A stretch of DNA of 6,231 bases from a virus. Lineage: Duplodnaviria > Heunggongvirae > Uroviricota > Caudoviricetes. Under the pieces are notes generated by a model. That model saw only the letters and a list, made by a program, of their open reading frames with translations, was not told the origin of the DNA and searched no databases. Location: IMG/VR virus record IMGVR_UViG_2648501230_000014; one strand, written 5' to 3'. Position numbers and translations under genes: made by a program. Positions 2 to 6,231 of the stretch are shown piece after piece. The stretch's first letter is position 1; the number at the start of each line of letters is the position of its first letter.

Positions 2-76
2 CAGACCAACCTGACGCTGAAAGAGGAAAGCTACGGCGACTGGCTGCCAAAATGTGACGACCCTGCAACAACCTGA
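2..76 (+). CDS. Probable 3' end of an upstream gene (partial, product unknown)
   Basis: Frame 2 is open from the window edge to TGA at 74-76 and uses common enterobacterial codons (CTG, GAA, GGC, GAC, AAA); frame 1 is full of rare codons (AGA, GGA, CTA, CGG, CGA). The stop is followed 8 nt later by a canonical intrinsic terminator. Translation ...QTNLTLKEESYGDWLPKCDDPATT* is not recognised. Confidence 0.35.
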   Translation, partial: QTNLTLKEESYGDWLPKCDDPATT

Positions 77-83
77 CCCACCT

Positions 84-109
84 GACCGGCATCTGCCGGT
101 CTTTTTTTT
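84..109 (+). terminator. Rho-independent terminator
   Basis: Perfect 7-bp stem GACCGGC (84-90) / GCCGGTC (95-101), 4-nt loop ATCT, followed by T8 (102-109). Confidence 0.6.
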
Positions 110-126
110 ATCCCGACCTCCCCCGA

Positions 127-250
127 AGGTGAACAATCCACTGTTCACCCTTCACCGTATATTCACCCGTTATCACACTGAAATTAAAAGAGAAAAACGA
201 AAGGTGAACAGTGTGAACAATCAAATCAAAAAAAACTTTTTTCTTCCTGA
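127..250. repeat. Tandem repeat unit 1 of an iteron-like array (GTTCACC/GGTGAAC heptamer cluster)
   Basis: GGTGAACA 128-135, TGTTCACC 142-149, TTCACC 151-156, TTCACCC 162-168, GGTGAACA 203-210, GTGAACA 213-219, then an A8-C-T6 tract. About 83% identical to unit 2 by hand alignment, with the heptamer blocks fully conserved. Confidence 0.6.
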
Positions 251-306
251 GTGATTTCAGTGCGGAGGATTAATCACCGGTATGAGTCACACCGGCAGAA
301 TGCCGG

Positions 307-430
307 AGGTGAAGAATCGAATGTTCACCCTTCACCCATTATTCACCACCTATCATACTGAAATAAAAGGAGAAAAAAGAAAGGTGAACAGTGTGAACAG
401 TTCTTTCGAAAAAAAATTTTTTCCTGTACG
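307..430. repeat. Tandem repeat unit 2 of the iteron-like array
   Basis: GGTGAAG 308-314, TGTTCACC 322-329, TTCACCC 331-337, TTCACCA 342-348, GGTGAACA 383-390, GTGAACAG 393-399, then an A8-T6 tract. Preceded by a CCGGC-AGAAT-GCCGG hairpin (292-306) that mirrors the CCGGC-ATCT-GCCGG hairpin before unit 1. Confidence 0.6.
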
Positions 431-710
431 ATATAGCATCAATCCAAGTAAAAATGCGCTTTCATTTCACATTAACTTACAGCCATTGGTATACGATTAG
501 GTATACGCACAAAAACTGAATTAAACAAAATCATTAAAAATCAAAGCAATACAATATTTATTCAAACTCCGCCAGCCCAATCATGATTGGACGGTGTAAG
601 GACAACACCAACAAAAACAGGAAGTTAGCAGTCTCAGCAGGACACCGACCAGACGGTGAGGAGACAAAAAAGGATACGCAAAGGAGCCGCGGCTCTCAAG
701 TGTGAAAGAA

Positions 711-788: not shown

Positions 789-1820
789 ATGGAAGCTACT
801 GTGGATTCGATTGATTTTCTGATCCGTAGTGAAGATGATTTTCTAAACTTTCTGGAAGAAATGAAAGCCCGAGAGGGGCTTGATTCTAAAGAGTTTATTT
901 TCCCTAACGTAAAGTTTGCAGGCTGGCCATCCTTAGACATAAATGTAAAAGGAGAGCGGTATCATTCATCAATTACATCAGCAATGTTGTTTGGTATGTC
1001 AATGCTCAACGAGGAGATACAGCGGGCGTTTGCAACCATACGATACGGATCGCAGAATCTTCAACGCTTGACTAATGAAGACAAGCAACGACTTGATATA
1101 AATTTTAAAATTAGCGAAGGTTCTAGTGATGCGGAAGGCACCACTGACAAGATCATCAACGCAGTAACTGATTTTTTGCGAGATACTATGTCTGGACTGA
1201 ACGGCTGGCAGAAAATGCTTGTTATAATCACAATGGTTGGCGCGGCCAGCACATGTGGTTATCACTACATTTCAGAAAATGCCGTAACAGAAAGACATGC
1301 AACTGATCGGCAGGTTGAAATTGCAAAAACCACATCCGATGGCATAAACAAAGCCATAGAAGCAACATTAGATTATAAAATCTATGGGAAATCAGCGATT
1401 AGCGATAAAGTTACTAGTCACGGACAAGCAGGTAAAAGTGCTTTAGTGAAGCAATTAGCTGCTGATCCTACTGTCGAAACCGTGACTTTAGGAAATGAGA
1501 AACTAACACGACAAGACCTAAATACCTACAACAGCCGACAATCTGTAGATAGAGAACGTAAAGAACGAACTGATATATTTTCCATCAAAGGTGTAACCAG
1601 AACAGGGCCAACAAATCAGGATATTAATATTAACGTTGTTAGGGTCTCTAATGACGAATGCTTCACAATCAAAGCTTCAGCTGATGTTATCACCCAAGAT
1701 GAGTTGACAGCTATTGTTGACGCTTTGTCAAACAACTCTCATATTAAAATCAGTTACTTAGAGGTAATTGAAAAGGGTGCTGTTTCTATAGGTCAGTTCA
1801 ACACTATTGTTTCAGAATAA
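789..1820 (+). CDS. Hypothetical protein (343 aa), first gene of a cargo operon; possible single-pass membrane protein
   Basis: Long ORF starting at the first ATG after an in-frame stop; AAGGA RBS at 777-781 with 7-nt spacer. Central hydrophobic stretch WQKMLVIITMVGAASTCGYHYI (residues 140-161). No catalytic motif I can assign. AT-rich relative to the tail genes. Confidence 0.8.
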   Translation: MEATVDSIDFLIRSEDDFLNFLEEMKAREGLDSKEFIFPNVKFAGWPSLDINVKGERYHSSITSAMLFGMSMLNEEIQRAFATIRYGSQNLQRLTNEDKQRLDINFKISEGSSDAEGTTDKIINAVTDFLRDTMSGLNGWQKMLVIITMVGAASTCGYHYISENAVTERHATDRQVEIAKTTSDGINKAIEATLDYKIYGKSAISDKVTSHGQAGKSALVKQLAADPTVETVTLGNEKLTRQDLNTYNSRQSVDRERKERTDIFSIKGVTRTGPTNQDININVVRVSNDECFTIKASADVITQDELTAIVDALSNNSHIKISYLEVIEKGAVSIGQFNTIVSE

Positions 1821-1871
1821 TCACTTAACCCCATTTATGTCGGTTGAGGTTATAAGTCACGGAGACCAGAT

Positions 1872-2216
1872 ATGTCCTTAAAGTATGCACATGAAAAATT
1901 TCATACTGCAGTACTTACTCTTGCGGGCCATGGAAGTATTCAAGAACGCTTGATTAATTCGTATGTTTTTAGCCTTGGGCATCTTAAAACAGCCGATGAT
2001 ATTCCAAATGCCTTACAAAGCAGGTTCGATGAATTATGTAAGGAACTGACTAAGTTTGATGCCACTGGCGATGAGGGGCGAGTTCAAGCAACAGTATCAA
2101 AACTTAACGATTTCGAGATCAATAAACTGATCGAAGATATTGTCAGTCTTAACGATGATATTTGCATGAAATTGGCTCTGACGGATGAGACTTACCAAGA
2201 CATACACCAAAGTTAA
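1872..2216 (+). CDS. Hypothetical protein (114 aa), second gene of the cargo operon
   Basis: GGAGA RBS at 1861-1865 with 6-nt spacer before ATG 1872. Lies 51 bp downstream of the 343-aa ORF on the same strand, followed by a hairpin at 2244-2266. Acidic, predicted helical, no recognisable motif. Confidence 0.75.
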   Translation: MSLKYAHEKFHTAVLTLAGHGSIQERLINSYVFSLGHLKTADDIPNALQSRFDELCKELTKFDATGDEGRVQATVSKLNDFEINKLIEDIVSLNDDICMKLALTDETYQDIHQS

Positions 2217-2243
2217 TTGATTAAATTCAAAAAGTTAACGTTC

Positions 2244-2266
2244 AACCAGCCAGTTTTTGGCTGGTT
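2244..2266. terminator. Probable bidirectional terminator hairpin between convergent genes
   Basis: AACCAGCC (2244-2251) / GGCTGGTT (2259-2266), 8-bp stem with 7-nt loop AGTTTTT, T-rich flank. Positioned between the 3' ends of the 1872..2216 (+) and 2301..2513 (-) genes. Confidence 0.45.
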
Positions 2267-2300
2267 TATTGTCTTATAATATTCTTGCTCGAATGATGCA

Positions 2301-2513
2301 CTATTTATGATGTAATCCGGACATCAGTTCATGGACAAGATTATCTCTTTCATTGTGTTGCAACCGTAAATGCATAGCAAAAAGGTGAGCACTATCCTCA
2401 TTCCTCTTCAAGCCATGCTGTTCAAGATACCCGAAAAAACGGCTTCTCTTATCCGCTATTTCCTGAGTCTGACGTGCAACATTTACCAAATTTTCTAGCG
2501 TTTTTCTTGGCAT
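2301..2513 (-). CDS. Hypothetical small protein (70 aa)
   Basis: Strong AGGAGG Shine-Dalgarno (complement of 2522-2527) 8 nt upstream of ATG (complement of 2511-2513). Basic, predicted helical. Lies downstream of the invertase on the same strand, where e14 of K-12 carries mcrA. Confidence 0.65.
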   Translation of the reverse strand: MPRKTLENLVNVARQTQEIADKRSRFFGYLEQHGLKRNEDSAHLFAMHLRLQHNERDNLVHELMSGLHHK

Positions 2514-2711
2514 ACTATTTCCTCCTGAAATTGTTGTAATTCACTAGGATATTCATTTTAATTTGTATCATTTAGTACCAAAACCGCTATCAATTAACAA
2601 AGCCATCGTTGTGGTTTACCTTGCAGCCGTTTTTTGTCATTGACTCTATGTGAAAATAATGAATCATCATGAGATTGGCTCACACGTTCTTGAATTCGAC
2701 GAGCTGTGTCT

Positions 2712-3266
2712 TTATTTATCTCCTGCCGGAAACCTCTGATACAAAGTCGATACGCCAACATCATAGATAATCGCAACTTTCTGGCGCGGAACTCCTGATG
2801 CAATTAATCGTCCGGCTTGTGCCCATTGTTCTGGTGTAAGTTTGGGACGACGTCCACCAATTCGTCCCTGTGCGCGAGCAGCTTCCAGTCCAGCTTTTGT
2901 TCGTTCAACAATCAGTTCTCGTTCCATTTCAGCCAGGGCCCCCATCACATGAAAGAAAAAGCGCCCCATTGGGGTACTGGTATCAATTGAATCCGTCAGA
3001 CTACGAAAGTTGATGCCTCGTTCGCGCAACTCCTCCACCAGCACGACAAGATGCCGCATACTGCGCCCCAGTCGGTCCAGTTTCCAGACCACCAGCGTAT
3101 CGCCTGCCGATAATGTCCTGAGCAGTTTTTTCAGTCCCGGCCTTTCGGACTTTGTACCGCTTATCTTGTCTTCAAAAATCAGCTCGCATCCTGCACAGTT
3201 CAGCGCATTACGTTGTAGATCTGTGTTCTGGTCATTTGTTGACACACGTACATAGCCAATAAGCAT
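2712..3266 (-). CDS. pin: Site-specific DNA invertase, serine recombinase of the Pin/Gin/Cin/Hin family
   Basis: 184-aa product MLIGYVRVSTNDQNTDLQRN...WKLDRLGRS...GINFRSLTDSIDTS.PMGRFFFHVMGALAEMERELI.ERT is an unmistakable match to Gin/Pin invertases (catalytic Ser in YVRVSTNDQ, C-terminal HTH). Start set at the ATG (3266..3264) preceded by GGGAGA, not at the longer ORF-track start at 3302. Stop TAA at 2714..2712. Confidence 0.93.
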   Translation of the reverse strand: MLIGYVRVSTNDQNTDLQRNALNCAGCELIFEDKISGTKSERPGLKKLLRTLSAGDTLVVWKLDRLGRSMRHLVVLVEELRERGINFRSLTDSIDTSTPMGRFFFHVMGALAEMERELIVERTKAGLEAARAQGRIGGRRPKLTPEQWAQAGRLIASGVPRQKVAIIYDVGVSTLYQRFPAGDK

Positions 3267-3292
3267 GGTAGATCTCCCTGACAAAAGCAGGA

Positions 3293-3805
3293 ATGATGCC
3301 ATTTGCTCGTTATTTCTGCATTTTCATAAACGTTGGTTTGGGAGAAGGTTCGGCATTACCCGTTGGTGTGCCTGTTCCGTGGCCTTCCGCCACTCCGCCA
3401 ACGGGGTGGCTAAAATGTAACGGAGCAGTATTTTCTTCTGAAAAGTACCCAAATCTGGCAAAGGCTTACCCAACATTAAAATTACCAGATTTACGCGGTG
3501 AATTTATTCGTGGCTGGGATGATGGGCGCGGGATTGACTCTGGTCGTAACTTATTATCTGCACAGAATGATGCAATTCAGAATATTGTTGGTTCTTTTGG
3601 GCGTACCCAGCTTTTTAGAGACGTACTTAGTTCAGGGCCATTTAGTCAACATGGGCAAGTATTATCTACAGGTCTAAAGGAAGCCGAAATTATTGAGGGT
3701 TATGGCGCTTATAACTGGACATTCGACGCATCTCGCTCAGTTCGCACAGCATCTGAAACCCGCTCCCGTAACATCGCCTTTAATTATATTGTGAGGGCTG
3801 CATGA
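3293..3805 (+). CDS. Alternative tail-fibre C-terminal variable cassette (promoterless, OFF orientation; stfE-like fragment)
   Basis: Translation contains the tail-fibre C-terminal signature ...GWLKCNGAVFSSEKYPNLAKAYPTLKLPDLRGEFIRGWDDGRGIDSGRNLLSAQNDAIQNI... The reading frame passes through the crossover site (NVGLGEG). The functional part begins at about 3335; the ATG at 3293 is probably fortuitous. Confidence 0.7.
   Translation: MMPFARYFCIFINVGLGEGSALPVGVPVPWPSATPPTGWLKCNGAVFSSEKYPNLAKAYPTLKLPDLRGEFIRGWDDGRGIDSGRNLLSAQNDAIQNIVGSFGRTQLFRDVLSSGPFSQHGQVLSTGLKEAEIIEGYGAYNWTFDASRSVRTASETRSRNIAFNYIVRAA
3321..3346. promoter_or_regulatory. Invertase crossover site (pix/gix/hix-like), pin-proximal
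   Basis: TTTTCATAAACGTTGGTTTGGGAGAA; reverse complement TTCTCCCAAACC-AA-CGTTTATGAAAA follows the 12-2-12 hix/gix layout (compare hixL TTCTTGAAAACC-AA-GGTTTTTGATAA as recalled). It is an inverted repeat of the site at 5266-5291. Confidence 0.8.
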
Positions 3806-4407
3806 TAAGTAAAGCTGTATTAAATAATGAACTCATCGCCACAAAGGCCGGAGACATTACCGTTTATAATTATGATGGTGAAACACGGGAATATATTTCC
3901 ACATCAACTGAATATCTTGCTGTGGGTGTTGGTATCCCGGCATGTTCCTGTTTAGATGCTCCTGGCTCATATAAAGCTGGTTATGCAATTTGCCGTTCTG
4001 CAGATTTTAACTCATGGGAATATGTGCCAGACCATCGCGGTGAAATCGTCTATAGCACCGAAACAGGAGAATCAAAAGAAATCACAGTTCCGGGTGATTA
4101 CCCTGAAAATACAACCACTATCGCCCCGTTAACGTCATACGATAAATGGGATGGTGAGAAATGGGTGACCGATACTGAGGCACAGCATAACGCCGCAGTA
4201 GACGCGGCAGAAGTACGGCGCCAGTCACTGATTGATGCTGCTATGGCTTCCATTAGTCTGATTCAGCTGAAATTGCAGGCCGGGCGGAAGCTGACGCAGG
4301 CAGAAACAACCCGGCTTAACGCTGTGCTGGATTACATTGACGCGGTGACTGCAACAGATACCAGCACCGCGCCGGATGTCATCTGGCCTGAACTACCGGA
4401 GGCGTAG
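3802..4407 (+). CDS. tfa: Tail-fibre assembly protein (Tfa family), alternative copy
   Basis: 201 aa; start overlaps the upstream stop (ATGA). Lambda-Tfa-like motifs: VPDHRGEIVY, YDKWDGEKWVTDTEAQ, C-terminal VTATDTSTAPDVIWPELPEA. Confidence 0.85.
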   Translation: MISKAVLNNELIATKAGDITVYNYDGETREYISTSTEYLAVGVGIPACSCLDAPGSYKAGYAICRSADFNSWEYVPDHRGEIVYSTETGESKEITVPGDYPENTTTIAPLTSYDKWDGEKWVTDTEAQHNAAVDAAEVRRQSLIDAAMASISLIQLKLQAGRKLTQAETTRLNAVLDYIDAVTATDTSTAPDVIWPELPEA

Positions 4408-4822
4408 GCCATTCAATATCTGGAGCACTGGAGGTATCAACCAGTTCCAGTGCGTCCAGATAATCCAGCCATAAATTATATTGTTCCAGCTCGTAACCTT
4501 TCAGACGACCAATAGCAGCTTTGCCAGGCCACTGATGGGTATTGATGTAGGTATTGACTTCTGAAACCAAAGATATCTTTTTCATTTCAGCCGCCAGCAT
4601 CTCATCCTCTTTTGAAGGCGGCGGGGAATTAATCCATATTGGCCGTCCTGAACTGTCAGCGCCAATTTCTTTCCCTTCTGGATGCAGCCCAAGAAATTGC
4701 TCATATGTTTCTCTGGTAATTTCAATAACATCATCAGGAAGCGTTCCCGCATCCTCATATTCTGGAAACAATTCTTGCAGATAAAAACTTTTACTTGCGG
4801 GTGAAAAGAATACTGAGTTCAT
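4379..4822 (-). CDS. tfa: Tail-fibre assembly protein (Tfa family), currently expressed copy
   Basis: 147 aa; ATG (4822..4820) lies 2 nt after the tail-fibre stop. C-terminal Tfa signature LWLDYLDALELVDTSSAPDIEWPTPP. Its 3' end overlaps the convergent tfa by 29 bp. Confidence 0.85.
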   Translation of the reverse strand: MNSVFFSPASKSFYLQELFPEYEDAGTLPDDVIEITRETYEQFLGLHPEGKEIGADSSGRPIWINSPPPSKEDEMLAAEMKKISLVSEVNTYINTHQWPGKAAIGRLKGYELEQYNLWLDYLDALELVDTSSAPDIEWPTPPVVQAR

Positions 4823-4824
4823 TC

Positions 4825-5568
4825 TTACCGTCCAATGATTAACGCTGAGACGCTGGTATCTGAAGGAAAGGCTGCATTCAGTGGTTTGTCGACTTTGAAC
4901 ACAATCGTATTATTCCCCCTGACAGCGGCAAAAGAACAAACCGCCGTCGCGTATGAACCTGTAATATTACTGGATACACCACCATAAGCTGTTGTTGATA
5001 CCAGAGGGATAACGCCCAGCACCTTATTAGGAAATACAAAGGGCAATGTGGCTGTGGCAATATAAGACTTATTAGAACCTGTAATGGCATAAGCATTATC
5101 AGTCATTCCATTCATCGCCACTGGACCGCTTATACTTACAGTAACCATCTGAATGATTAGCCCGTCAGGTTGACGAATCACAAAATTTCCATTGCCACCA
5201 GTAACCGTCCAGAAAGACATATCAGGGATTTGGTTTTCCCCGTTGCCCACATTTCGTTTTGCCGCTTCTCCCAAACCAAGGTTTTCGAGAGCCGTTTTCA
5301 CCGTGCCATCAGATTTGATATCGCCAAACGGATTCTTGCGGCTTAACAGCAGCGCACGAAGCGCGGTAAGCAGCTGGTCATGCCGCCCCTTCTCCAGGCT
5401 GGCACCGGATGCCTCCACCACGCTGCAGAGTTCTTCCTGCAACATGTCAAAGTAGTCATCATCCAGATCGGTGGCAGGTGTGCCGGTCTGGGGGTTACCA
5501 CGGGTAAAACCGTTCTTACCCGCGCCGAACTTATCCTTCTGCGCGGTTTTCGTGTCTATACGATGCAT
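4825..5568 (-). CDS. Tail fibre protein (constant N-terminal part outside, variable C-terminal part inside the invertible segment; stfP-like)
   Basis: 247 aa; GGAG RBS 6 nt upstream of ATG (5568..5566). The crossover site lies in-frame at residues ~93-101 ([10 protein letters not shown]). Follows the gpI-like gene with a 3-nt gap. Confidence 0.85.
5266..5291. promoter_or_regulatory. Invertase crossover site (pix/gix/hix-like), inside the tail-fibre gene
   Basis: TTCTCCCAAACC-AA-GGTTTTCGAGAG. Matches the pin-proximal site in inverted orientation at 18 of 20 positions around the AA/TT core. Confidence 0.8.
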
Positions 5569-5571
5569 GGA

Positions 5572-6229
<658 letters not shown>

Positions 6230-6231
6230 CA

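Follow-up and report, generated by a model that had tools for sequence, protein, structure and literature searches.

What is the function of an array of short repeats that lies close to one end of a fragment of viral DNA? The fragment in question (IMG/VR record IMGVR_UViG_2648501230_000014, Caudoviricetes, 6231 nt; hereafter the window) had been read once from its letters alone. This sequence-only reading drew attention to positions 127–430, where it saw twelve copies of the heptamer GTTCACC/GGTGAAC in two tandem units of about 120 bp, and it offered several roles: integrase arm-type or att-associated sites, an origin or partition site, a repressor operator array or a pair of structured small RNA genes. 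We have followed up these proposals computationally.

Organization of the repeat array

A repeat search identified two 121-nt direct repeats at 123–243 and 303–423, which share 83% identity and start 180 nt apart. The array is made up of two 120-bp units (123–242 and 303–422) with a spacer of about 60 bp between them; the unit length given earlier is right, but because of the spacer the units do not follow each other head to tail. The window contains five exact copies of GTTCACC, at 128 (−), 143 (+), 203 (−), 323 (+) and 383 (−), compared with 0.73 occurrences expected, and none of 200 shuffles contained five or more. The figure of twelve heptamers holds when one mismatch is allowed. Six sites then fall in unit 1, at 128 (−), 143 (+), 150 (+), 161 (+), 203 (−) and 212 (−), and the same six recur in unit 2 shifted by 180 nt, so that all twelve lie inside 128–398; seven of them are one-base variants (CTTCACC three times, ATTCACC and GTTCACA twice each). 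A further 20 one-mismatch matches are dispersed across the other ~5.9 kb of the window.

The order of sites in each unit is as first described, with one GGTGAAC-sense site (−) followed by three in the GTTCACC sense (+) and two more in the GGTGAAC sense (−). The heptamers are nearly, rather than perfectly, conserved between the units: 41 of 42 heptamer positions are identical, against 59 of 79 in the rest of the unit (Fisher p = 9e-4). The sole difference is in the first site, where unit 1 has GGTGAAC and unit 2 has GGTGAAG. Each unit can be described as six type 1 iterons of 7–8 bp (consensus TGTTCACC) in a fixed layout of mixed orientation around an AT-rich centre. The A-run/T-run tracts and the CCGGC-N4-5-GCCGG hairpins of the sequence-only reading are also present, the former at 228–242 and 409–422, the latter at 87–100 and 292–305. 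The features of the array, under the names used for satellite phage P4 and assigned below, are as follows.

123–242, plus strand: crr 120-bp direct repeat 1 (repeat search; corresponds to P4 X51522 4471–4590, 'crr 120bp direct repeat')
128–135, minus strand: type 1 iteron a1, TGTTCACC on the minus strand (motif search; 'ori type 1 repeat' in the P4 record)
142–149, plus strand: type 1 iteron b1, TGTTCACC (motif search; P4 annotation)
150–156, plus strand: weaker sixth site c1, CTTCACC (without annotation in the P4 record, yet conserved)
160–167, plus strand: type 1 iteron d1, TATTCACC (motif search; P4 annotation)
203–210, minus strand: type 1 iteron e1, TGTTCACC on the minus strand (motif search; P4 annotation)
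212–219, minus strand: type 1 iteron f1, TGTTCACA on the minus strand (motif search; P4 annotation)
228–242, no strand: A8-C-T6 tract that closes unit 1 (seen in the sequence; kept across genera)
243–302, no strand: spacer between the units, about 60 bp (poorly conserved, 68%; length varies across genera)
292–305: hairpin CCGGC-AGAAT-GCCGG, mostly in the spacer with its last three bases in unit 2 (P4/E. coli lineage only)
303–422, plus strand: crr 120-bp direct repeat 2 (repeat search; corresponds to P4 X51522 4291–4410)
308–315 (minus), 322–329 (plus), 330–336 (plus), 340–347 (plus), 383–390 (minus) and 392–399 (minus): iterons of repeat 2
409–422: A8T6 tract at the end of repeat 2

We also observed a conserved central TGAAAT motif, at 178–184 and 358–363, that is without annotation in the P4 records.

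Identity with the P4 cis replication region

When window positions 60–520 were compared with phage records by blastn, phage P4 was the only match, the aligned part being query positions 1–363. Window 60–422 corresponds to X51522 4291–4652 with 97.5% identity over 363 nt (E = 1e-172), and the homology ends exactly at 422, the last base of the second 120-bp repeat. In a pairwise alignment of window and P4, the stretch from the alpha stop codon to base 422 shows six substitutions and a single indel in a T-run, none of them in the iterons, and two further substitutions are found in the last codons of alpha. All twelve iteron sites are identical in the two sequences, and ten of them bear the label 'ori type 1 repeat' in the P4 record.

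The P4 record X51522 gives the order of features as the end of alpha, the rho-independent terminator 't-alpha', crr (4291–4590), attP arm repeats, attP core and int. An independent, older record, X05623, entitled 'alpha gene and cis replication region crr', has the same features, with crr at 2733–3032. In the P4 annotation crr is a cis-required region, entered separately from rep_origin (9086–9809). The same arrangement is recognizable at the start of the window, where the array lies directly 3′ of two features.

2–76, plus strand: 3′ end of alpha (primase-helicase/origin-binding protein), comprising the last 24 codons (QTNLTLKEESYGDWLPKCDDPATT) and the TGA stop at 74–76, in register with the end of the P4 alpha CDS
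84–109, plus strand: rho-independent alpha terminator, stem GACCGGC-ATCT-GCCGGTC then T8 (terminator scan; 't-alpha' in X51522 and X05623; conserved across genera)

The first of the two CCGGC hairpins noted earlier (87–100) is this terminator. The part of alpha inside the window is limited to these last 24 codons and the stop, and the residues that they encode form the end of the solved origin-binding domain and are identical to PDB entry 1KA8. Complete P4-like prophages have the same order of alpha, terminator and array.

Window 123–422 is almost certainly the cis replication region (crr) that belongs to a P4-type satellite prophage with ssrA as its integration site. It shares with P4 crr the two 120-bp direct repeats, the 60-bp spacer, the twelve sites and the place after the alpha stop and terminator. 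The identity is established by sequence, iteron layout, position and linkage to alpha; conservation is focused on the iterons and the region is non-coding. The sequence is free of any feature that contradicts the assignment. The array is therefore one that has already been described, as the annotated cis element of satellite phage P4 (X05623, X51522). The difference from P4 lies past base 422, where the DNA is unrelated to P4 attP and carries instead an ssrA-like att core and other candidate arm sites.

Distribution and linkage to alpha

The crr query matched 1134 of 5426 complete E. coli genomes, always in the chromosome. In every case inspected alpha was immediately followed by crr, and several different chromosomal locations were represented (ssrA/ypjA and the setC–yicL region). 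The outcome that the sequence-only reading had named as speaking against it was a widespread enterobacterial repeat family with no linkage to this element. The unit is indeed widespread but is strictly linked to the alpha of P4-like satellites, so only half of that description applies. Of the 40 records listed, 33 had 'none' as the RefSeq label under the crr match, and the others had 'hypothetical protein' or 'integrase'.

A complete P4-like satellite of about 11.5 kb is present at ssrA in E. coli DSM 103246 (L002) and in E. coli S1-ESP-02-A (L091), and the crr of the latter is 100% identical to that of the window. The order in both is ssrA, int, an ABC-three-component cargo, psu, delta, sid, (ori), a helix-turn-helix regulator, further early genes, alpha and crr. 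Clusters of TTCACC occur in L002 at the position of ori (9200–9600) and at crr only. As a side observation, the cargo slot between int and psu (L002 4129–6844, L091 2981–5696) holds an 'ABC-three component system' (a DUF2326 protein and middle component 6); a census of P4-like satellites describes this slot as a hotspot of defence systems.

Other genera contributed 80 alpha loci, and in 72 of these the DNA past alpha was long enough to be tested for a duplicated unit (the score for which had a shuffle maximum of 50/100). A duplicated unit of ~100 nt with a period of 165–180 nt was present in about 17 of the 72. It begins 42–64 nt past the alpha stop, except in Serratia L088 (+212), and the genera concerned are Enterobacter, Atlantibacter, Pseudescherichia, Edwardsiella, Citrobacter, Superficieibacter, Klebsiella, Raoultella and Serratia. 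Loci L050–L087 (Pantoea, Pectobacterium, Serratia, Yersinia, Rahnella and others), in which the origin-binding domain of alpha is at most 66% identical to that of P4, gave no TGTTCAC array or duplicated unit within 450–700 nt past alpha, Serratia L088 being the exception. A k-mer search for alternative iterons downstream of the distant alpha homologues gave no clear alternative motif. Satellites with a distant alpha may use a diverged, relocated or different crr, or may have none.

Proposed role in replication

Theta replication of P4 starts at ori and needs crr in cis. The two elements lie ~4.5–5 kb apart, with ori between sid and the early operon. The alpha protein combines a primase, an SF3 helicase and a C-terminal winged-helix origin-binding domain, and by means of this last domain it binds the same type 1 iterons at ori and at crr. 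It is thought that crr is an auxiliary alpha-binding or bridging site. Cnr raises the binding of alpha to ori and crr, which provides negative copy-number control. Biochemically, crr may serve as an enhancer, a loading site or a handcuffing site. The literature on P4 replication includes Flensburg & Calendar (1987), Ziegelin et al. (1993, 1995, 1997), Ziegelin & Lanka (1995) and Yeo et al. (2002). A 2026 preprint on engineered P4 phasmids gives crr as the 'cis required region for replication', and a paper on pRN1 describes the winged-helix domain of alpha.

We infer from this literature that alpha binding, a requirement in cis and looping apply to the crr of the present element. Alpha would bind the iterons at both ori and this crr, a prediction supported indirectly by iterons identical to those of P4 and by the end of the origin-binding domain, which matches 1KA8. 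The crr would then act as an auxiliary alpha-loading or enhancer site, probably through alpha bridging ori and crr, and replication would be shut down when Cnr tightens the binding of alpha at crr.

The P4 ori (ori1, X51522 9086–9809) also has type 1 octamers, six copies that are TGTTCACC-like and of mixed orientation, but differs in having type 2 decamer repeats as well and another order of site orientations. Replication starts at ori and crr is the auxiliary cis site; the ori position of this element lies outside the 6.2-kb window. Among the roles proposed from the letters alone, an origin comes closest, as crr is cis-required and its type 1 iterons are those also found in the P4 origin; the partition option is without support.

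A second job for crr in the integrated state is conceivable, in which alpha–crr complexes would link the start of replication to excision or to the attR architecture, or would keep the prophage silent by titrating alpha. What suggests it is that crr lies about 65 nt from the candidate arm sites and that the A/T tracts and TGAAAT are conserved with no function assigned to them. We consider this improbable.

Prophage end and attachment site

Beyond crr the window continues into the end of the satellite prophage.

488–495 and 500–507, plus strand: two copies of GGTATACG, 12 bp apart, 66 nt past crr (candidate arm-type sites of an ssrA-specific integrase)
560–584 (approximate), plus strand: attR core, a diverged copy of the 3′ end of ssrA (tmRNA), TTCAAACTCCGCCAGCCCAATCA (recognized against the 3′ ends of ssrA in L002 and L004)

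The ssrA 3′ end with which the core was compared is TTCAACTCCCGCCAGCTCCACCA, and the match to ssrA-adjacent DNA begins at 561 or 577. A tRNA/tmRNA scan of the window found no such gene; what the att core reproduces of the ssrA 3′ end is no more than a short, diverged stretch. The following ~155 nt (585–739) are the DNA that follows ssrA in satellite-free strains and are identical to strain HE302; a hairpin and T-run at 708–732 end this stretch. The attR core marks the right boundary of the satellite prophage. With its ssrA-like att core and candidate arm sites that differ from those of P4, the element presumably relies on an ssrA-specific integrase.

The proximity of the array to this boundary bears on the proposal that the heptamers are integrase arm-type or accessory sites, part of attR/attP, that organize the recombination complex. 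The array is only ~65–140 nt from the prophage end, measured to the candidate arm sites (488–507) and the att core (~560–584), and in P4 crr likewise adjoins attP. This is not where the sequences point, however. The annotated arm repeats of P4 are different, paired 12-mers outside crr, to which the GGTATACG pair of the window is analogous. The iterons are unchanged between P4 and the window even though homology ends at 422 and the att regions differ, P4 attP having no sequence relationship with the ssrA-type end of this element. In L002 the int-proximal arm is without a TTCACC cluster. The motif that flanks both prophage ends is GGTATACG, not the heptamer; five copies occur in the 28.7 kb of L002, all at the two ends, three of them between ssrA and int (2859+, 2871+ and 2899−) and two homologous to the pair in the window. 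We rejected integrase arm sites on these grounds and regard such a function as very unlikely. The assignment to crr is preferred.

A second prophage, unrelated to the satellite and with a tail module of Mu-like type, abuts it; its end occupies 789–6231 of the window.

789–1820, plus strand: ORF of 343 aa
1872–2216, plus strand: ORF of 114 aa
2301–2513, minus strand: ORF of 69–70 aa
2712–3302, minus strand: Pin/resolvase invertase
3293–3805: tail-collar protein
3802–4407, plus strand, and 4379–4822, minus strand: opposed tail-fibre assembly genes
4825–5568, minus strand: gp53-like fibre C-terminus
5572–6183, minus strand: Mu gp48/YmfQ protein

The genes between 2712 and 6183 include a Pin-invertible host-range (tail-fibre) segment. 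The three ORFs at the att-proximal end of this prophage gave no match in Pfam and PADLOC scans and are hypothetical in RefSeq; their position is typical for moron or defence cargo. The window is a junction between a P4-like satellite, the ssrA attachment site and an unrelated prophage. A satellite directly next to this second prophage was not found in any complete E. coli genome of the collection.

Conservation and coding status

Conservation was assessed in an alignment of 20 sequences and scored on 19 of them, the poorly aligned Serratia L088 being dropped. Mean column conservation across genera is 95% in the iterons, 85% in the rest of the units, 68% in the spacer and 53% beyond crr. The iteron columns differ from the rest-of-unit columns with a Mann–Whitney p of 2e-5, relatedness among the sequences being uncontrolled in this test. 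The sixth site, which the P4 record leaves unannotated, is as conserved as the annotated sites. This CTTCACC, at 150 and 330, abuts iteron b; CCTTCACCG is present at unit 1 in 15 of the 19 aligned homologues, and the unit 2 copy (330–336) in 17 of the 19. The terminal A7-8-C-T4-6 tract and the central TGAAAT are kept across genera, and the second hairpin (292–305) is confined to the P4/E. coli lineage. The conserved parts are the iterons, the unannotated sixth site and the terminal A/T tract; spacer and hairpin are variable.

Could the units instead be small structured RNA genes, or the two overlapping ORFs (54–254 and 282–500) encode small proteins? Both reading frames run uninterrupted in the window, as they do in P4, and RefSeq NC_001609 lists 'hypothetical protein' under the region. 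The frames are not preserved in homologues from other genera: in 14 of 15 the ORF1 frame contains a stop or differs in length by a number of bases not divisible by three, and in 15 of 15 the ORF2 frame contains at least one stop. Conservation peaks at the 7–8-bp sites and is without codon periodicity. Coding-type conservation, which would have told against selection on protein-binding sites, was not what we found, and crr is non-coding. As for RNA, inverted iterons permit hairpins and z reaches −2.65 for the minus strand of unit 2, but the remaining three folds, with z from −0.4 to −2.3, are weak and the whole range of weak scores is attributable to the inverted iterons. An Rfam scan of the whole window gave no family match. 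The single promoter-like site that was found lies at 699–671 (minus), and positions 1–670 are free of such sites on both strands. A structured small RNA gene and coding by the small ORFs were both rejected, and we judge this pair of readings slightly less probable even than arm sites. The view that selection acts on protein-binding sites and not on the small ORFs is borne out by the gradient from iterons to spacer and by the broken frames.

Comparison with plasmid iteron origins

Theta-plasmid iteron origins share with crr several initiator sites, a second cluster able to pair and a role in copy number. Those of pSC101, R6K, P1, F and RK2 have direct iterons of 17–22 bp and initiators of the RepA/pi type, whereas the sites here are 7–8 bp long and occur in both orientations, and their predicted ligand is the winged-helix tail of a primase-helicase. 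Short clustered repeats beside a replication gene, an AT-rich centre and A/T tracts would suit a plasmid-type iteron origin, and equally a partition (centromere) site or an array of repressor operators. These readings can be dismissed as having a negligible chance of being right, as site size and orientation are wrong for a plasmid-type origin, the P4 rep_origin is annotated elsewhere and separately from crr, and no par or repressor gene is found beside the array in related complete elements.

Significance

The sequence-only reading thus made an observation that is confirmed and an interpretation that is partly supported: protein-binding iterons with a role in replication are essentially right, and the integrase arm, repressor operator and small RNA options fall away. 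The discovery value is small, since crr is a textbook element of P4, and the cross-genus comparison adds a modest point on which of its parts are conserved. There is value for annotation, as NCBI PGAP usually leaves crr unlabelled in E. coli genomes. Once crr is recognized, the right-hand end of a P4-like satellite prophage can be located.
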